Below, piece after piece: positions 774-8,568 of a stretch of 64,000 nucleotides of DNA. Position 1 is the first letter of the stretch. Each line of letters begins with the position of its first letter. The notes beneath the pieces were generated by a model. That model worked only from the letters and a program-made list of their open reading frames with translations. It was not told the origin of the DNA and ran no database searches. The stretch covers positions 96,001 to 160,000 of the forward strand of contig JBFWWG010000008.1 of NCBI GenBank assembly GCA_050246315.1, given 5' to 3'. Position numbers and translations under genes: made by a program. The DNA is from Nitrospiraceae bacterium (GTDB taxonomy: Bacteria > Nitrospirota > Nitrospiria > Nitrospirales > Nitrospiraceae).

Positions 774-1784
774 GTGCCGGATGAGGACCACGTGAACCAG
801 ATTTCTCCCGTGCCCTTCTACATGCTGACCGGCCCGTTGGGGACAGGCAAGACGACGATGCTGCTGCGCCTGTTGGAATATTGGAAGAAGCAGGGCCGCA
901 ATGTCGGGGTGGTCATGAACGAATCCGGCCAGATCAGCATCGACGGGCCGCGCGCCGGCGCCATCGCCGGCCAGGTGGTGAATCTCGCCGGCGGCTGCGT
1001 CTGTTGCGATACGAAGGACGACCTGGCCTGGGGTATCGGTCAGTTGATCACCGAGGACCAGTGCAACCTCATCGTGCTGGAATGTTCCGGCATGGCCAAT
1101 CCGACGGAAGTCATCGATGCCGTCACCGACGCCTTTGTCTCACGGTTCGTGACGTTGCGCCAGGTCATCGCGCTGCTTCAGCCGGCGGCCGACCCCGAAC
1201 AGGCCTACAACGATCCGGTGATCGCCCACTCGCTCCGCTGCGCCGACGACATCATCTTGAACAAACGCGATCTGTTTCTCAGCACCTTGTGGAAAGCGTC
1301 CTCCAGAGCCATTGTCGCCCGCAATCCCGACGCGCGTCTTTGGGAAGCCAGCCAGGCCCGTGTCGATCTGGACGAGCTGCTCCGACCACGCGAGCGGCCG
1401 CGATCGAATCAGCCTACACCAAACGTAACCTTCGACGCTGATCCGCCCTCGACTCACTCTACAGCGCGCGCCGCCTATCATCCCCTGGTCGTCACGGCAC
1501 GACTGCCCGGTCCGGTGGATCGGCGCAAGTTCATGGAGTGGATGACGGGGCTCCCGGCGGGACTCGAACGAGCTAAGGGATTCCTGCGGTTTAGCGACGA
1601 TCCGTCGCTCCAGGAGTTTCAATTTGCGCCGCCCGGCGTCAATCGGGTGGAGCCGCTTCATCTGCTGGATGAACCCCCGCATGCCATCGTGCTCATCGGT
1701 CGGGGCTATGACCAAGAGGCCTGTCGGTCTGCGTTGCTGGCCTGTATCCATGCCGGAGCAGACCATCACCGGCAGCGCGAGTGA
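774..1784 (+). CDS. COG0523/CobW-family G3E P-loop GTPase (metallochaperone)
   Basis: Walker A GPLGTGKTT, VVMNE, metal motif GGCVCC, LECSG, LNKRD, C-terminal ERAKGF (CobW_C-like). The start may be GTG 792. Confidence 0.9.
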   Translation: MPDEDHVNQISPVPFYMLTGPLGTGKTTMLLRLLEYWKKQGRNVGVVMNESGQISIDGPRAGAIAGQVVNLAGGCVCCDTKDDLAWGIGQLITEDQCNLIVLECSGMANPTEVIDAVTDAFVSRFVTLRQVIALLQPAADPEQAYNDPVIAHSLRCADDIILNKRDLFLSTLWKASSRAIVARNPDARLWEASQARVDLDELLRPRERPRSNQPTPNVTFDADPPSTHSTARAAYHPLVVTARLPGPVDRRKFMEWMTGLPAGLERAKGFLRFSDDPSLQEFQFAPPGVNRVEPLHLLDEPPHAIVLIGRGYDQEACRSALLACIHAGADHHRQRE

Positions 1785-2604: not shown

Positions 2605-3219
2605 TCAGTGACCGAGACCGATGAACGGTGTGTCCCCTTCCGCGCCGGGACGCGAGTGATCGGATGTGGGGATTGTCTTCACAGCCGCCGCAGGTCGAAA
2701 CCGATGCCAGCGAAGCAGCAAGAACGCGGCGCCGGCTCCCATGATCCCGCCCACCAGCCATCCTCCCAGCACATCGCCCGGATAGTGGACGCCGGTGTAA
2801 ACTCGGGCCACTCCCACCAGGAAGACAATCGGCCAACTGATCCATCCGGTCTTCGGATAGAGGGCGTGGAGAAAGGCCGCCATGGCGGCGGTATTGATCG
2901 CATGGTTGGATGGAAAGCCGAAGAGCCGCCCGCAATCGCCGAGAAGATGCACGTCGGGCAGGCTGACACAGGGTCGCAATCGTTCGACCAGGTGTTTGAG
3001 TTGCGCACCCATCGCATCGGCAATCCCCACGGCCGATGCGACGGTTGGAACGGCGAACAAGGACTCCCACCATGACCACCATGCCCACAGGACGACTGCG
3101 ACGCTCAGACCGAGCAGGCCCGGACTGGGGTGCGCACAGAATCGCATGGCGACATCAAGCCACTCGAATCGGCCGGCCAGGCCGTTGATCGCATAGAACA
3201 GCGCGGCGTCCCAGGTCAT
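2605..3219 (-). CDS. PAP2-family membrane phosphatase
   Basis: KxxxxRxRP (KHLVERLRP), FPSNH, and ARVYTGVHYPGDV motifs. Confidence 0.9.
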   Translation of the reverse strand: MTWDAALFYAINGLAGRFEWLDVAMRFCAHPSPGLLGLSVAVVLWAWWSWWESLFAVPTVASAVGIADAMGAQLKHLVERLRPCVSLPDVHLLGDCGRLFGFPSNHAINTAAMAAFLHALYPKTGWISWPIVFLVGVARVYTGVHYPGDVLGGWLVGGIMGAGAAFLLLRWHRFRPAAAVKTIPTSDHSRPGAEGDTPFIGLGH

Positions 3220-3220
3220 C

Positions 3221-3356
3221 CGTCAGTCGCCAATCGTCAACCGACATTCGCCAAGCGTTAAGCGACAGGAGCAATTCATTGCGAAGCTTGTCTCCCCTTG
3301 TTGGATAAACCTGCAAGAGTGGACGATTGACGCGTGACCACTGACGAATGACGTTT
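3221..3356. repeat. Two oppositely oriented degenerate heptamer tracts
   Basis: 3221-3269: cgtcagt cgccaat cgtcaac cgacatt cgccaag cgttaag cgacagg. 3322-3356: gacgatt gacgcgt gaccact gacgaat gacgttt. Confidence 0.6.
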
Positions 3357-3363
3357 GTCTGAT

Positions 3364-3834
3364 TCACTGCGTCCGGAAATGGATGCGCACCGTAATCTCG
3401 CCATCCACCGGCTCATCGCCCTTCATCTGCGGCTCGAAAGTCCATCGGTTCAGAGCCTGAAGGCTCGCCTGCGTCAGCTCGCGATGCTTGCAAGGCTCCA
3501 GCACCACCACGGTCGCGGTGGCGTTCTTGCTGACCAGAAATCGCGCCTTCATCCAGTCGTCGATCACCTTGCCGTCGAGCTGCGGCGGAATCTTCGGCCA
3601 GGGTGTGAGTTTCGGAACCGGTCCGAGCTGCTGATCCTTGTTCAGCGGCAAACCATGGACGTGCACTTCCTGAAGGTCGAGAACCTCAAGGTCCTCGGCA
3701 TGATCAGCCTCGTGCGTGGCACCGTCGCCGCTTGCCGCGTTCGCGGCGACCGGCCAGAAGCAGAGACAAAACGCAGAGCCCAGCACGATCTTCCGAATCT
3801 TTGCCGTCACCCAGGTGGAGACCGCTTCTCTCAT
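3364..3834 (-). CDS. Short TonB C-terminal-domain (energy transducer TonB family) protein
   Basis: C-terminal ...ARFLVSKNATATV...QALNRWTFEPQMKGDEPVDGEITVRIHF. Signal-like N-terminus. GGGAGG SD before ATG 3834. Lies directly downstream of a TBDR. Confidence 0.75.
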   Translation of the reverse strand: MREAVSTWVTAKIRKIVLGSAFCLCFWPVAANAASGDGATHEADHAEDLEVLDLQEVHVHGLPLNKDQQLGPVPKLTPWPKIPPQLDGKVIDDWMKARFLVSKNATATVVVLEPCKHRELTQASLQALNRWTFEPQMKGDEPVDGEITVRIHFRTQ

Positions 3835-3921
3835 GACCTCCCACGCTCCATGATCGGATGAGCACATCGGCCTCCGACCTCTCGCTCGAACCGGATGTTC
3901 CCGCAATCCTCCCGCACGTTG

Positions 3922-6339
3922 TTAGAAGAACCACTGTGCGCGGAGGAAGAATGATCGCGGCATTCCGGCATGAGCCACGCCCAAGCCGATGCTGCCTCCT
4001 CCGGAATTGTAGAAGTATCGTTCATTGAATAGGTTGATGAGATCGATTCCGAGCAACATCTTCTGGTTGTGCCAAGGTAGCGGAATCACATGAGTGATCG
4101 ATGCATTATAGACCGTGTAAGAGGGCTCGTGTGTAGAATTTGTTTTGGCTCCCTCTTCCGCCGTTCTGAGACCGTAGCCGTATAACATCTGGCCAGAAAT
4201 ATTGGTCCGCGGAAAGATTTGGTAATTCACCACCGCCGAACTGGTCACGAACTGAGAGTGATCGCAGAACACACCGCCCTTCGAATTGATGTCGTCAATT
4301 TCTCTTTGGCCAAGCAAGTATTGTCCGGACTGTAGCCCGTAGCCCTTGCACTGGCCCCAACCTGCGACCCCACGGCCCGTCAGCTTGTCGAAGTTGAACG
4401 TCACTCCCCCGTCGATACCACGGGTCCACCCGTTTTCGAATGCGAAGAAATTCAGCATCGGCGTGGTGCCGAACTGCCCCGCATCCGACAAATAGTGCGC
4501 GAGCTTGTAATATCCCGTTACCTGTAGCGTCGCATACCGGGTGATGGCATGATAGCTTCCCACCTCGAAATAGTGCGCGCGCTCCGCACGGGGACGGAAG
4601 CCGGTCGGGTCGTCGGGGGCGGCCGTGGTGTTCTGGGTATTCAGATTAGCAAATGCGATCTGCTCGACGTTGGGCGGAGTAAATTGCCTGCCGTAATAGG
4701 CGTGGAAAACGTTTGACTGGTTGAGCTTGTAGGTCAGGCCGAGTCTCGGACTGACCTGCCCCTCGTTGTAGAACCCCTGGATGGCATCGCCTCTGACGCC
4801 CAGATTGAGAGTCCACTGGTCGTTCAATGTCCACTGGTCCTGCACCCAAACTTCCTGTCGCGTCTGATTGTTCAGGTTGGATGATTGCAAGCCGATGACC
4901 GGACCCAGCGGCACGCCGCCACCGGTGTCGAAAGCGAAAATCTGCGCCTCGTTGTTCGCGCGGGTATAGTCGAATTGAAAACCCGACCTGATCAGGTGCT
5001 TGCTGTTGGGCACCCAGGCGTAGTCCAAGCGGAACCCGCCGGAATAGGCCGTCCGTTTCTGATTCGCGGTCTGAGCGGAGTCCACATCGTCGACGTAGGC
5101 CAGCGAGTTCAAGGGATCGGTCTGGAAATTTGCCACGCCCCGCCGAAAATAGAACCCGAGATTGAAGAAGCTACTCGCGTTCACGTCATGTCGCCAGACC
5201 AATTGGGTGTATTGATTGTTCTCCTTCTGAAACTGATTCACGTATTGCGAGTTGCTGGGCTCGAACCCGGACGGCAACAAGGCAAGGACTTGGCCGTTCG
5301 GCTCAAGGTTTGGAATCGTCGGGATCTGGTACTTCGCCACCGAGCCAAGGAAGATCCAGGCGAAGTTGTTCCGATTGTCTCGCTGGTAGTCACCCCGCAG
5401 ATACGTGTTATTCTTCTCGCTCTGGTTGTGGTAGCTCGGATTGCCCAGTGTGGGAGGATCAAGCCCGCGATTCGTGGTGACATAGCTGTTCATGAGGTAG
5501 AACCGAAACTTTTCGCCGATCGTCCCGCCGTATTCCAATGAAGGATTCACCGTCTCATTCGATCCGCCGAAAGTCTGAATCGAGCCGAAGCCGGGTTTCG
5601 TGCCGCTCTTACTCGTGATATCTACAAGGACGGCCGTTTTGTTTCCGTATTGCGCCTCCATGCCGCCCAGGATCATGTCCGACCGCTCCCACGCACGAGG
5701 CGGAACGATATCGGCAAAGGCGCCGGTAACCGTGTCGGGAATCGGAATGCCGTCGATCCGATACTGCTGGTTGGCATGGTCCTGACGAATGTGGGTTTGA
5801 TTGAGCGCTCCATAGGCCACGCTCGGAAGGGTCAGCAATACACTTGCGACATCGTTATTGTTGCCCCGGGGGAGAATCTCCACATCTTTCCGGCTCAACT
5901 GATAGATCGAGCTTGAGGCGTTGTGTTGAATCGCGGGCAGCGGGGAGACGATCTCCAACGCAATTTCCTGGGTGACCGCCAACGTCAGGGTCACCGGCGC
6001 CGGTGGCTCGATTCCGATCTTCAGCACGACAAATTCGCTCTTGTAGGTGTCCTGAATCGCGCTGATGGAATAGGTGCCTTCGCCTGGCACCGTCACCGTA
6101 AATTCCCCGGCCTGGTTCGTGACTCCCTCCGTCACCACCGTGCCTTCTTGATCACGAACCTGCACGATCGCCTGATCAACTCGACGAAGATCCTGGTTCT
6201 GGACGACGCCGCTGATCCGATTCATCTGCGGCCCGGGTTCCCCTTCTTGGGCCTGTACAGGCGACAGCGGGATGATGACCCCGGCCAGCAGGCAGCAGGC
6301 CAAAATCGTCCCAAACTCACGTTTGGCAGCACGATGCAC
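3922..6339 (-). CDS. TonB-dependent outer-membrane receptor with N-terminal carboxypeptidase-regulatory-like domain
   Basis: Signal peptide, ISGVVQNQ..GEFTVTVP domain, plug (HIRQDHANQQYRIDGIPI, GGMEAQYGNK), QDQWTLN/LNLGVRGD/SPRLGLTY, C-terminal aromatic residue (PRSFFLRAQWFF). GAGGAGGAGG SD precedes GTG 6339. Confidence 0.93.
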   Translation of the reverse strand: MHRAAKREFGTILACCLLAGVIIPLSPVQAQEGEPGPQMNRISGVVQNQDLRRVDQAIVQVRDQEGTVVTEGVTNQAGEFTVTVPGEGTYSISAIQDTYKSEFVVLKIGIEPPAPVTLTLAVTQEIALEIVSPLPAIQHNASSSIYQLSRKDVEILPRGNNNDVASVLLTLPSVAYGALNQTHIRQDHANQQYRIDGIPIPDTVTGAFADIVPPRAWERSDMILGGMEAQYGNKTAVLVDITSKSGTKPGFGSIQTFGGSNETVNPSLEYGGTIGEKFRFYLMNSYVTTNRGLDPPTLGNPSYHNQSEKNNTYLRGDYQRDNRNNFAWIFLGSVAKYQIPTIPNLEPNGQVLALLPSGFEPSNSQYVNQFQKENNQYTQLVWRHDVNASSFFNLGFYFRRGVANFQTDPLNSLAYVDDVDSAQTANQKRTAYSGGFRLDYAWVPNSKHLIRSGFQFDYTRANNEAQIFAFDTGGGVPLGPVIGLQSSNLNNQTRQEVWVQDQWTLNDQWTLNLGVRGDAIQGFYNEGQVSPRLGLTYKLNQSNVFHAYYGRQFTPPNVEQIAFANLNTQNTTAAPDDPTGFRPRAERAHYFEVGSYHAITRYATLQVTGYYKLAHYLSDAGQFGTTPMLNFFAFENGWTRGIDGGVTFNFDKLTGRGVAGWGQCKGYGLQSGQYLLGQREIDDINSKGGVFCDHSQFVTSSAVVNYQIFPRTNISGQMLYGYGLRTAEEGAKTNSTHEPSYTVYNASITHVIPLPWHNQKMLLGIDLINLFNERYFYNSGGGSIGLGVAHAGMPRSFFLRAQWFF

Positions 6340-6444
6340 GATGTCCTCCTCCTCACCGAGCACAACGGACGACTGCACGCCAGGCTCGATCGCAACGCGA
6401 TCGGTCTGCGTTCGGCAGCCGTGACAGGGTTGTGTTGACGGGAA

Positions 6445-6783
6445 TCAGAGAACCGGAGGAGCCCTTGGGGAGGCGGTCACGATCAGCGCCGACGCGACAG
6501 GGGCGACGACGGATGAAACAACGGCTTCGCACGGAACCAGAAAGCGTTGGACGGTAGAGAGAACGGCCAGGACAGACTGTCCGGTGTGGTGTTGAACCCA
6601 CTGGCAAAGGTCCGAGTCGGAATGTTCATGCCCGTCGTGATCCGCCGCAGCCAGCTCATGGTGCACACCCAGGGCGGCGGCAAAGGGCATGAGCGTCAGC
6701 AGCAGCAGAATGAGGGCCTGGACGCTCAAGGCTGTGGCCAGACGACCAAGCCGGTGCGAGCGAAACATGATCATGGGAATCAT
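6445..6783 (-). CDS. DUF2946-like His-rich leader protein ending in RAPP (candidate arrest peptide)
   Basis: Hydrophobic signal/TM segment, GVHHELAAADHDGHEHSDSDLCQWVQHH, C-terminal SPRAPPVL*. Sits 105 nt upstream of the TBDR on the same strand. Start is one of ATG 6783/6774/6768. Confidence 0.75.
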   Translation of the reverse strand: MIPMIMFRSHRLGRLATALSVQALILLLLTLMPFAAALGVHHELAAADHDGHEHSDSDLCQWVQHHTGQSVLAVLSTVQRFLVPCEAVVSSVVAPVASALIVTASPRAPPVL

Positions 6784-6794
6784 AGAGGGGCCGG

Positions 6795-6824
6795 ACGGTA
6801 ACCTAGACGCGGTGAGACTGTCAA
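6795..6824 (-). promoter_or_regulatory. Putative sigma70 promoter for the leader-TBDR operon
   Basis: Minus strand TTGACA-N18-TACCGT, ending 11 nt before ATG 6783. Confidence 0.45.
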
Positions 6825-6911
6825 TAACCGTGATATCCACATCCAGCGACACCGAGTCCGCCGCCGAAGATATTCTTGATCCTATCCCGCATATCCCTCT
6901 CGCATAATTCA

Positions 6912-7030
6912 CGTCCAGCATGATTCACAAGAATTCGGGACGAAACCGCGAAGATGCCGCGCGTTGGCCCCATTGCTCTGAAGCAGAGCACTGAGTAAAC
7001 CCTTCGCCTCGTCACGAACGGCAATGTCGA
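6912..7030. repeat. Degenerate copy of the CTAG-ended palindromic element family (two short arms)
   Basis: atgattcacaagaattcgggacgaaaccgcgaagatgccgcgcgttggccccattgc aligns to the reverse complement of the right arm of the 12232-12479 copy. Central hairpin tgctctg-aag-cagagca; ends in tcgtcacgaac. Confidence 0.6.
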
Positions 7031-7127
7031 ACAGACTCCGCGCGCGAGAAGCGATCGCCCCACCGAACGTGGCCGAACCGGCCTACTTCGGTGAACGTGG
7101 CGGGGTGGGTAGACGGTCCCCTGTCCG

Positions 7128-7295
7128 CTAGAGATTGCTGCCCGTGGCGAATGAGCGAAGTCTGTGCACGAGCGGCGCGCTGCAATCGGGGCAGGCCTGG
7201 TTGACGGCCTCGTTGACCCCTTGCAGAAATGGCCTCTGCTTGGTGCAGGTGGCGGCCCCTCAACATTGTCTGCCAGATACTCATAGAGTCGGAAT
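7128..7295 (-). pseudogene. Possible decayed FmdB-type zinc-ribbon gene
   Basis: LYEYLADN in one frame and CTKQRPFLQGVNEAVNQACPDCSAPLVHRLRSFATG in another. No intact start codon. Confidence 0.4.
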
Positions 7296-7350
7296 GCCCG
7301 AGGTTCGAGAGCATGCAGCTCGGATCTGAAAGAGCTTTTCGTAGCGGTGT

Positions 7351-7379
7351 TGGACTTCTTTGGAAAAACTCGATATGCT
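7351..7379 (+). promoter_or_regulatory. Putative sigma70 promoter of the DAHP synthase gene
   Basis: TGGACT-N17-TATGCT. Confidence 0.35.
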
Positions 7380-7509
7380 AACGCCCTTTGGGCTGAATCC
7401 GTCTCGACAGCCTGAACTCCGACTGTCGGGAATTCGATCTCGGTGTCCAGCGGCAAATCGATCGCAGGGGGCGACGTTGCGCGCCTCGCAGGAGAAAGGA
7501 CCGTCAGCC

Positions 7510-8568
7510 ATGTACAGGCCGGTTGATAACCAGCACGTCATCGAAATTAAACCCCTTCCGTCTCCAAGGCAAGTCAAAACCAAACTGCCCTTGACCGAGC
7601 CGGCCTCGTCAGTGGTGTATGAAACCCGCCAAGCCATTCGAAACATCCTGCACGGGATCGATCGGGACCGACTGCTCGTCATCGTCGGCCCCTGCTCCAT
7701 CCATGACCCGGACGCGGCCTACGAGTACGCTGATCGGTTGAAAACCGTCGCCGATACGCTGCGCGAACGCGTGCTGATCGTGATGCGCACCTACTTCGAG
7801 AAACCCCGCACCACGGTCGGATGGAAGGGCCTCATCAATGATCCGCACCTCGACGGGACTTGCGATATCACCTTGGGTATCGAGTTGGCGCGAACGATTC
7901 TGCTGAATATCAACCATCGCGGCCTTCCTTGCGCCAGCGAACTACTCGACCCGGTCATGCCGCAGTATATTGCCGACCTCGTGAGTTGGGCCGCCATCGG
8001 AGCCAGAACTACGGAAAGCCAGACTCATCGCGAGATGGCGAGCGGCCTGTCCATGCCCATCGGCTTCAAGAATGGTACAGAAGGCAGCTTTCAGGTCGCG
8101 ATCAACGCGATGGTGGCGGCCCGCACGCCGCATCATTTCGTCGGCATCAACGCCGACGGGATCACCTCCATCATCAAGACCACGGGGAACCCCGACCGCC
8201 ATCTCGTCCTGCGCGGCGGAGGCGGCCGGACGAACTATGGCGCCGAGGATATCGCGCGCGCGGAAGCGGCCGTCTCCGAGGAAGGACTCGTCCGACCGAT
8301 CATGGTCGATTGCTCACACGACAATTCCGGGAAGAATCACCAACGCCAGGTTGAAGTGGCGCGTGAGGTCGTCGCGCAATTCGAGCAGGGCCGGCGCTCC
8401 ATCATGGGCCTCATGCTGGAAAGCCATCTCAACCCGGGCCGCCAAACTTGGGAACCCAACAGGCCGCTGGCCTACGGGGTGTCGATCACCGACCCCTGCC
8501 TCTCCTGGAGCGATACCGAAGCGTTGCTGCATAATTTGGCGACCAGCCCGGCCGCTCGACCCGCGTAG
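7510..8568 (+). CDS. 3-deoxy-7-phosphoheptulonate (DAHP) synthase, class I-alpha (AroF/G/H family)
   Basis: GPCSIHD, MRTYFEKPRTTVGWKGLINDP, IGARTTESQTHREMASGLS, DCSHDNS. SD GGAGAAAGGA before ATG 7510. Confidence 0.95.
   Translation: MYRPVDNQHVIEIKPLPSPRQVKTKLPLTEPASSVVYETRQAIRNILHGIDRDRLLVIVGPCSIHDPDAAYEYADRLKTVADTLRERVLIVMRTYFEKPRTTVGWKGLINDPHLDGTCDITLGIELARTILLNINHRGLPCASELLDPVMPQYIADLVSWAAIGARTTESQTHREMASGLSMPIGFKNGTEGSFQVAINAMVAARTPHHFVGINADGITSIIKTTGNPDRHLVLRGGGGRTNYGAEDIARAEAAVSEEGLVRPIMVDCSHDNSGKNHQRQVEVAREVVAQFEQGRRSIMGLMLESHLNPGRQTWEPNRPLAYGVSITDPCLSWSDTEALLHNLATSPAARPA

Follow-up and report, generated by a model that had tools for sequence, protein, structure and literature searches.

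A small gene ahead of a TonB-dependent receptor

Our analysis concerned a stretch of 64,000 nt from a Nitrospiraceae bacterium (assembly GCA_050246315.1, contig JBFWWG010000008.1, positions 96,001 to 160,000 of the forward strand), hereafter called the window, to which all coordinates without a locus number refer. On its minus strand lies a small open reading frame (ORF), here called the leader, which is the first gene of an operon and is followed by a spacer of about 100 nt and a gene for a TonB-dependent receptor (TBDR). The leader is a real, strongly conserved gene that is specific to one lineage, the Nitrospirales, in the data searched. It probably encodes a regulatory peptide of the CruR/CutF type, i.e. 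a nascent chain that would sense a metal, arrest its own ribosome at a C-terminal RAPP motif and control the operon of receptor, TonB_C-domain protein and PAP2-family phosphatase. Judged by the neighbouring genes, the metal sensed would most likely be zinc. The parts of the leader are listed below.

6445-6783, minus strand: leader ORF, 112 codons (112 aa), beginning MIPMIMFRSHRLGRLATALSVQALILLLLTLMPFAAALGVHHELAAADHDGHEHSDSDLCQWVQHH, with the C-terminal end SPRAPPVL followed by the stop
6670-6744, minus strand: N-terminal segment, residues ~14-38, basic and then hydrophobic, ending PFAAAL, as read from the sequence
6586-6663, minus strand: predicted metal motif H41-H66 (HHELAAADHDGHEHSDSDLCQWVQHH) with seven His and one Cys, based on family alignments
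6466-6585, minus strand: linker, residues 67-106, about 40 residues of variable sequence and fixed length, with no indels in an alignment of 25 sequences
6454-6465, minus strand: RAPP codons AGG GCT CCT CCG, where arrest is predicted to occur, Pro109 occupying the P site and Pro110 the A site
6439-6453, minus strand: last two leader codons, stop codon and 6 nt (GUUCUCUGAUUCCCG), predicted to pair with the Shine-Dalgarno (SD) region of the receptor gene

The window genome carries a single copy of the leader. The probable start is ATG 6783, with the reading frame open further, to ATG 6921, and the stop codon occupies 6445-6447 (minus strand). Judged by eye, the N-terminus resembles either a Sec-type signal peptide or an N-in anchor; a basic and then hydrophobic N-terminus ending in A-x-A is visible by eye in every aligned member, and four positions of the segment (L28, P33, F34 and A37) are invariant in the 25 aligned sequences. 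A 98%-identical strain, seen in two metatranscriptomes, carries 3 inserted nt at the second leader codon (window 6781). An initial annotation, made from the window alone, had described the ORF at 6445-6783 with an export segment, a seven-His patch and RAPP, placed 105 nt before a TBDR gene that is followed by a TonB-C gene, and all of this was confirmed.

Conservation, distribution and gene order

A search of about 5.8 billion proteins returned 981 relatives of the leader at E<=0.01. The best 120 of these are all named 'hypothetical protein' and come mostly from Nitrospira; one relative in this search is labelled Methylomirabilaceae. When 1.84 billion cluster representatives were searched with a profile, only 92 clusters (50% identity) were found at E<=0.001, so that the family appears compact and does not merge into a larger family at that level. 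Within a sample of 301 genomes of the phylum, the leader gene is present in 62, including 50 of 50 genomes of its own family; two sister families within the order have it in 10 of 24 and 1 of 1 genomes, and the remaining sampled families gave none. Named genomes, counted with one genome per species, contain 273 relatives. The best 80 of the 273 are labelled Nitrospira, Nitrospiraceae or Nitrospirota, bar two 'uncultured bacterium' and one labelled Nitrosospira, and one of these 80 comes from the complete genome of Ca. Nitrospira defluvii.

The 25 aligned sequences are 42-81% identical to the window protein and share a near-fixed stretch, LAPFAxALEVHHELAAADHDGHEHSDxDLCQWVQHHT, and a fixed (S/P)RAPP, the ~40 residues before the latter being free. 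Across the 43 most diverse members, including paralogues that end in RGPP, residues H42, H54, C60, R107, P109 and P110 are invariant and D58 and W62 almost so. The initial annotation had proposed that the CXXC of related copper leaders is replaced here by a single Cys together with His residues, and the alignments bear this out, with the lone invariant C60 in D-L-C-Q-W, the invariant H42 and H54, and no second conserved Cys. Both R[AGP]PP and D-x-C-x-W occur in 177 of 210 retrieved proteins, most of the other 33 being records that are truncated or frameshifted. In the group of 177, the distance from Cys to Arg (C60-R107) is 46 residues in 163 and 47 in 13, with one outlier; the protein ends exactly two residues past RxPP in 148; and the arrest-type motif is RAPP in 151, RGPP in 23 and RPPP in three. 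Comparison of the locus DNA revealed that positions 1 and 2 of the RAPP codons are fixed and position 3 is variable, from which we conclude that the ORF is under selection as a protein.

The leader is followed by the genes and signals listed below, the last of which is context only.

6340-6444, minus strand: spacer of 105 nt, its first part C-rich, with a perfect 7-bp hairpin at 6387-6403 and a G-rich last part
6337-6354, minus strand: SD sequence of the receptor gene, GAGGAGGAGGA (6344-6354), and its probable GTG start (6337-6339)
3922-6339, minus strand: TBDR of 805 aa (PF00593, E 8.2e-16) with an N-terminal CarboxypepD_reg-like domain
3364-3906, minus strand: TonB_C-domain protein (Pfam TonB_C, E 5.8e-8, 33.5 bits, cut-off 24.6)
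2605-3219, minus strand: PAP2-family phosphatase (PAP2, E 5.4e-19), the last gene on the strand
774-1784, plus strand: COG0523 (CobW/ZigA-type) GTPase, convergent to the operon

The gene order is conserved together with the leader, and taken together these features lie well above chance expectation. At the 30 best loci every leader ends with RAPP, two residues and the stop (30 of 30), and a receptor orthologue comes next at all 30, with 57-78% identity at the 29 foreign loci; overall, receptor orthologues are 50-82% identical. Where enough downstream DNA was available in named genomes (77 of 80 loci), the next gene is the receptor in 75 and a porin-ZnuABC operon in two. The initial annotation had named absence of RAPP and the His patch upstream of orthologous receptors as an outcome that would speak against it; both features are kept there, at 30 of 30 best loci and 75 of 77 named-genome loci. 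Neighbours were counted at 51 loci with at least 5.5 kb of downstream DNA, and these contain the receptor in 49 cases, the TonB_C gene in 49 and the PAP2 gene in 38. A COG0523 GTPase within 7 kb downstream was found in 32 of the 51 and a CDF transporter in 24, and a divergent gene for 3-deoxy-D-arabino-heptulosonate 7-phosphate (DAHP) synthase lies upstream in 44. The spacer measures 83-112 nt at the 30 loci, where it ends in an SD sequence, a start codon and a signal peptide, and has a median length of 101 nt among 96 distinct spacers. Anatomy, conservation, spacing and synteny of the leader, and the codon bias described below, are direct observations.

The receptor frame is open from GTG 6378, and GTG 6339, which lies 5 nt past GAGGAGGAGGA, opens a signal peptide (MHRAAKREFGTILACCLLAGVIIPLSPVQA). 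In two RNA libraries the 98%-identical strain has a 1-nt deletion at 6359 in the spacer; the stretch is therefore non-coding there, and a receptor start at 6378 is incompatible with it. For the N-terminal domain of the receptor, PF13620 scores 28.1 bits, under the cut-off of 32.3. No relative in the PDB was found by sequence or profile (best E 0.09), and there was no Pfam Plug match; two Cys are conserved in the consensus of 14 orthologues (motifs GQCKGYG and VFCDH). The TonB_C protein probably starts at ATG 3834, which opens a signal-peptide-like N-terminus, and its homology to orthologues begins at residues ~36-60. A second leader copy in one genome, at L039:4900-5280, has lost the stop two codons after RAPP and continues for 21 extra codons, so that 20 nt separate its end from the receptor start; it is a naturally occurring variant of the rule of RAPP plus two residues. 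At L048:4449-5405 a transposase gene of the IS1595 family lies between the leader and the porin-ZnuABC genes.

The region upstream of the leader was also inspected. The intergenic region between leader and DAHP synthase gene is ~720 nt long in the window and ~160-240 nt in other Nitrospira. Many Nitrospira loci share, between the two genes, a conserved motif of ~30 nt (approximate consensus AACATAGCGAATTnTnnnGGATAAAGTCCAG). In the window it lies at 7349-7382 (minus strand), far from the leader and ~125-160 nt upstream of where the DAHP synthase gene probably starts (~7507). Because of this position, the AACATAGCGAATTnTnnnGGATAAAGTCCAG-type motif probably belongs to the control region of the aro gene. 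A Zur/Fur operator upstream of the leader had been considered and was dropped, since the only conserved upstream motif accompanies, in the window genome, the divergent DAHP synthase gene. The same intergenic region contains two short dispersed repeats (6915-6980 and 7001-7046), of which the genome has 24 other partial copies, 77-94% identical. Contigs from RNA libraries that match only 7009-7039 and have flanks unlike the window fit such a repeated element.

Proposed mechanism and the metal sensed

In the mechanism that we propose, the N-terminal signal or anchor would direct the nascent chain to the Sec translocon, and arrest would set in once the ribosome has reached R107-A108-P109 and Pro110-tRNA occupies the A site. 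When the P site holds Pro109, C60 is 49, H65/H66 43-44 and H41/H42 67-68 residues away from the peptidyl-transferase centre, and at arrest the His/Asp/Cys motif (H42, H54, D58, C60) would have just left the exit tunnel and would sit within the translocon or past it. This placement uses general lengths of tunnel and translocon, which are compatible with reading of the metal on either side of the membrane. When the metal is scarce, the arrest would persist and the stalled ribosome would hold downstream expression on. Metal bound to the emerging motif would relieve the arrest, termination would follow two codons on and expression of the receptor would drop. The stall might be transmitted to the receptor gene in two ways. 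Along a CutF-like route, the stalled ribosome would cover RAPP, the last two codons and the stop, which would otherwise pair with the receptor SD. Along a CruR-like route, stalled and queued ribosomes would cover a C-rich, G-poor stretch and bar Rho from the transcript. Both routes are possible, the present data fit them alike, and they could act together.

Pairing of the SD was predicted by folding 87 distinct loci, the final 36 nt of the leader being part of the folded sequence. The SD core has a mean unpaired probability of 0.117, and its partners lie in the RAPP codons (0.449) and in the following 24 nt (0.263). Removal of the footprint of a ribosome stalled at Pro109 raised the predicted accessibility to 0.315 (2.7-fold), with higher values at 70 of 87 loci; at locus L005 the change was from 0.01 to 0.63. 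Synonymous recoding of RAPP with the commonest codons gave 0.198 and a higher value at 63 of 87. In the window, both the minimum-energy and the centroid structure pair GUUCUCU-GA-UUCCCG (6439-6453) with GGAGGAC, GAG and CGG of the SD region. The RAPP codons are strongly skewed at the same 87 loci, with CCU for the first Pro in 54 (background 17%), GCU for Ala in 40 (13%) and CGC for Arg in 68 (25%); CCUCC, the complement of GGAGG, occurs in 54, and when we sorted the first 30 loci into 13 clades, CCU was used by the majority in 9 of them. This bias could act as an anti-SD or could slow decoding at the arrest site.

Base composition and termination signals bear on the second route. The last 120 nt of the leader contain more C than G (mean (C-G)/length +0.16), and within the spacer C outnumbers G over the first 40 nt at 68 of 87 loci and over the G-rich last 40 nt at one of 87. 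Rho is encoded in the genome (711 bits, cut-off 509). No intrinsic terminator was found in the window spacer, and a consensus scan gave no sigma-70-like promoter; at some other loci hairpins followed by T-runs were seen, judged by eye. A comparison with Rfam gave nothing above chance for 6200-7600. Part of the stretch is contained in 17 runs recorded as RNA. Four of the RNA runs were examined; two metatranscriptomes among them contain an 11,264-nt contig of the 98%-identical strain that covers 3300-6816, and two transcriptome libraries of the exact strain yielded short low-depth contigs over receptor and leader.

Indications for the metal come from genes next to the leader and its paralogue. 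In a sister family, the same leader heads genes for an OmpL-like beta-barrel porin (BBP2), a binding protein of the ZnuA family (E 1.6e-44), an ABC ATPase (ABC_tran) and an ABC-3 permease; the combination of leader and operon of the BBP2-porin/ZnuABC type was found at loci L048, L049, L050 and L054, and also at L068 and L071. The paralogue ending in RGPP (sequence EH...HEHSDQDVCAWLDH, linker, RGPP and three residues) is located at L044:15787-16188 (minus strand) after a Fur-family gene and before genes for a COG0523 protein, a WD40 protein, a second COG0523 protein, a DUF3386 protein and a ZIP transporter. Both here and at L039:3919-4233 it overlaps the end of the preceding Fur-family gene. 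The paralogue would represent an arrest leader ahead of a cytoplasmic protein. The gene order at L039 is Fur-family gene, RGPP paralogue, leader, receptor and COG0523 gene, and this COG0523 protein passes the cut-off of the NCBIfam model for ZigA, a zinc metallochaperone (614.9 vs 600 bits). For the ABC components, models of the zinc systems Azt/Znu match best; the ZIP protein matches ZupT; all of these scores lie under curated cut-offs. In the window genome there are only two Fur-family genes, each 33% identical to the Fur-family protein associated with the paralogue; the first adjoins a pair of genes that read as an ABC binding protein and a permease, the second a gene that reads like rubrerythrin, both judged by eye from the sequence. 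Should the leader sense a metal, zinc is ranked first with reasonable confidence, since its neighbours are ZnuABC-type, COG0523/ZigA, ZIP and Fur-family genes and no copper partners appeared in the scans. Of the metals named in the initial annotation (Ni, Co, Zn or Cu), zinc is thus retained as the best guess by gene neighbourhoods, and copper, nickel and cobalt are placed behind it, as is manganese.

Copper could be sensed by the same arrest-leader mechanism, and the receptor would then be a copper importer. CruR likewise heads a TBDR operon, DUF2946 is a recurrent weak Pfam match of the leader family, and Nitrospira is generally known to use copper enzymes. We nevertheless regard copper as unlikely, given that the leader has neither CXXC nor a Met-rich motif and a single invariant Cys, that its neighbours include CDF genes besides the zinc-type genes just named, and that none of the copper partners PepSY_TM, PCuAC, ScoC, YcnI and CopC was among the neighbours scanned with Pfam or matched by tblastn, a survey that was less than exhaustive. 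Nickel, cobalt, manganese or iron appear about equally improbable. In the accessible text of PMC9973294, CutF-like clusters with His only that precede HupE/UreJ are proposed as Ni/Co sensors, COG0523 includes CobW, and the ZnuA-family proteins match MntC almost as well as they match zinc models; against this, no HupE/UreJ, Nik or Cbi genes were found in the contexts scanned, one linked COG0523 protein exceeds the ZigA cut-off and the ABC components fit Azt/Znu models best.

Two further explanations do without a metal switch. The leader might be a small exported or membrane-anchored metal-binding protein, such as a chaperone or an accessory of the receptor, with a RAPP that has no regulatory role. 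The metal motif is conserved far beyond the need of a mere leader, and arrest at RAPP is itself deduced from sequence, both of which would suit such a protein. Its chances nonetheless seem slim to us in view of a 40-residue linker that is free in sequence and fixed in length, of RxPP ending two residues before the stop in most members, of the synonymous codon skew at RAPP and of a gene that is always first, before a ~100-nt spacer; RAPP/RGPP is also described as under-represented and arrest-prone in proteomes in the available part of PMC12992588. Alternatively, the leader might monitor Sec/YidC in the manner of ApdA/ApdP/SecM and report export capacity instead of metal. As far as its available descriptions go, that class is recognised by RAPP combined with an export-type segment at the N-terminus, and yet the downstream genes in the surveyed loci are never Sec/YidC components (they encode a TBDR or porin-ZnuABC), and the invariant His/Cys motif has no role in this model, which we therefore consider very improbable.

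Several results weigh against a metal-responsive arrest leader, or against parts of the mechanism, and have to be set beside the evidence given above. We infer arrest, metal binding, the sign of the regulation and the route of transmission. The Pfam model for DUF2946 scores the window leader at 17.0 bits (E 0.01), below the gathering threshold of 23.7, and matches 13 of 25 family members at E<=1 with a best E of 0.0011, and the profile searches bridged no wider family including DUF2946 at E<=0.001. The likeness to CruR and CutF drawn in the initial annotation accordingly holds for the architecture (export-type N-terminus, motif, 46-residue ruler, RAPP and TBDR operon) and does not demonstrate membership in DUF2946 (17 vs 23.7 bits). 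At the RNA level, shuffled upstream sequence still left the SD unpaired at only 0.153, compared with 0.117 for native sequence, which was lower at 57 of 87 loci, so that the gain over chance is small. When the 3' end of the leader was left out, masking of the SD was no better than in shuffles, the native value falling under the shuffle mean at 28 of 87 loci. An anti-SD confined to the stop and the next 12-14 nt was rejected, its duplex energies not differing significantly from shuffles (mean -10.4 vs -8.9 kcal/mol for shuffles; in the window -8.8 vs -8.8 kcal/mol), and no clade-specific covariation of the duplex between stop region and SD was detected (7 of 13 clades, p 0.39, and 9 of 13, p 0.15). 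Fold z-scores of the spacers have a mean of -1.0, with 5 of 30 under -2, and the fold of the locus in the window has one of -0.51. The surveyed loci are mutually related, and counts over them overstate their independence. Contigs from the RNA libraries document the presence of the region and carry no information on regulation, starts, ends or strand; the 11-kb contig may be DNA. As for zinc, the assignment is drawn entirely from neighbouring genes. The ZnuA-like binding proteins score nearly equally against the manganese protein MntC and pass no cut-off, Fur/PerR models give the top scores for the Fur-family neighbours, and the COG0523 protein of the window could not be assigned to ZigA. In one genome, at L045:6875-9519 (minus strand), the leader precedes a 318-aa protein (no Pfam/NCBIfam match) and a His-rich CDF transporter, with transposase fragments nearby; CDF transporters are usually exporters, and this arrangement fits poorly to a switch that is on when metal is scarce.

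Taking both sides together, we still consider a CruR/CutF-type leader with nascent-chain metal sensing and RAPP arrest the probable explanation. A wider proposal is put forward only tentatively and falls somewhat short of being probable. It states that the Nitrospirales possess throughout a zinc-sensing nascent peptide, which would be the first such peptide, with a His2-Asp-Cys site 46 residues before RAPP that would read zinc availability at the translocon, that it serves as a main switch of outer-membrane zinc uptake, in genomes like that of the window perhaps without an adjacent Zur, and that the RGPP paralogue acts likewise for cytoplasmic COG0523 zinc chaperones.

Metal sensing by an arrested nascent peptide has, to our knowledge, been shown experimentally only for copper, in CruR and CutF. 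If our reading is true, the Nitrospira leaders would extend it to zinc with a family that has a different ligand set and zinc-type partners and that occurs in every Nitrospiraceae genome sampled. The 46-residue 'ruler' of free sequence would offer a natural system for following how a metal-binding signal outside the ribosome reaches the peptidyl-transferase centre. Nitrite oxidation in wastewater plants and soils is mainly the work of Nitrospira; control of their zinc uptake would be identified, along with a likely substrate for a 'hypothetical' TBDR. Cultured strains, Ca. N. defluvii for example, carry the locus, which makes the idea testable.

Comparison with known arrest leaders

Published systems are described here from the accessible parts of the cited texts. 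CruR (Bp2923) of Bordetella pertussis is the prototype of DUF2946 (PF11162), which is defined by CXXC and RAPP; in CruR the two are 45 residues apart and RAPP lies three residues from the end (PMC9426467). More than 95% of DUF2946 proteins have an export signal, and their genes come first in operons with TonB-dependent transporter (TBDT) or PepSY_TM genes, separated by long spacers. Copper lifts the arrest of CruR, which leads to Rho-dependent termination in a 162-nt spacer (PMC9426467), and in vitro, by toeprint, the arrested ribosome holds the two Pro codons in its P and A sites (PMC12992588). The Nitrospira leader shares with CruR the position as a small first gene of a TBDR operon, an N-terminus that reads as export-type, a putative metal motif containing Cys at a fixed distance from RAPP (46 vs 45 residues), a RAPP two to three residues before the stop and a long spacer to the receptor, and an uptake operon would in both cases imply expression when the metal is scarce. 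It differs from CruR in its single invariant Cys among invariant His (H42, H54) in place of CXXC, in a spacer of ~100 instead of 162 nt, in neighbours of zinc type instead of copper type and in encoding RAPP by rare codons, where B. pertussis uses frequent ones (PMC9426467). The lineage is different too. The taxa named for DUF2946 are beta-, gamma- and alphaproteobacteria and a few Planctomycetes, Firmicutes and Deinococcus; the Nitrospirales are not listed in the main text of PMC9426467, and the string 'Nitrospir' is absent from the three supplementary files searched.

Features typical of DUF2946 are found in the Nitrospira leader, namely RAPP near the C-terminus, a fixed spacing between motif and RAPP and the place as first operon gene before a TBDT gene with a long spacer. 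No Pfam domain was precomputed for any of the best 120 homologues, and in the ESM Atlas a cluster with 16% DUF2946 members appears only at rank 23. Because the Pfam score is below threshold and CXXC is absent, the leader is best read as working like CruR and is not filed as a member of DUF2946.

CutF of Rhodobacter capsulatus resembles the Nitrospira leader in its Sec signal, Cys/His metal site and C-terminal Pro-rich arrest motif, all three predicted in the latter. In CutF, copper prolongs the stall and thus melts a stem-loop over cutO's ribosome-binding site (PMC9973294; 10.1101/2025.02.05.636593). CutF requires its signal peptide, whereas CruR is reported to be functional without one. A spacer structure that shields the next ribosome-binding site, as in CutF, would correspond here to a predicted SD pairing that barely beats shuffles (0.117 vs 0.153). 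In contrast to CutF, which turns on a detoxifying oxidase at high copper, the Nitrospira leader would act on an importer. The 5,334 CutF-like proteins described form clusters with Cys, His or both, and sensing of nickel or cobalt has been proposed for the two His-only clusters that precede HupE/UreJ (PMC9973294); the Nitrospira leader differs from these in standing before a TBDR or ZnuABC, and its paralogue before COG0523.

The initial annotation had known of no description of such control in this lineage. We found no description in the literature of the Nitrospira leader family or of any zinc-linked arrest leader, although the protein lists behind PMC9973294 and PMC12992588 lay outside this search and may include the family; the general idea is in print, in the available texts, as His-rich leaders for other metals (PMC9973294) and as RAPP/RGPP upstream ORFs (PMC12992588). 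The latter are small ORFs with signal sequences that are enriched before TonB-dependent receptors and copper genes in Gram-negative phyla. The partners named there are copper-related, and the word 'zinc' is absent from the main text of PMC12992588. With these ORFs and with ApdA/ApdP the Nitrospira leader shares a C-terminal RAPP (RGPP in the paralogue), a putative signal sequence and, downstream, a TBDR, but unlike the ApdA/ApdP class, which is linked to Sec/YidC genes, it stands before a TBDR or porin-ZnuABC.

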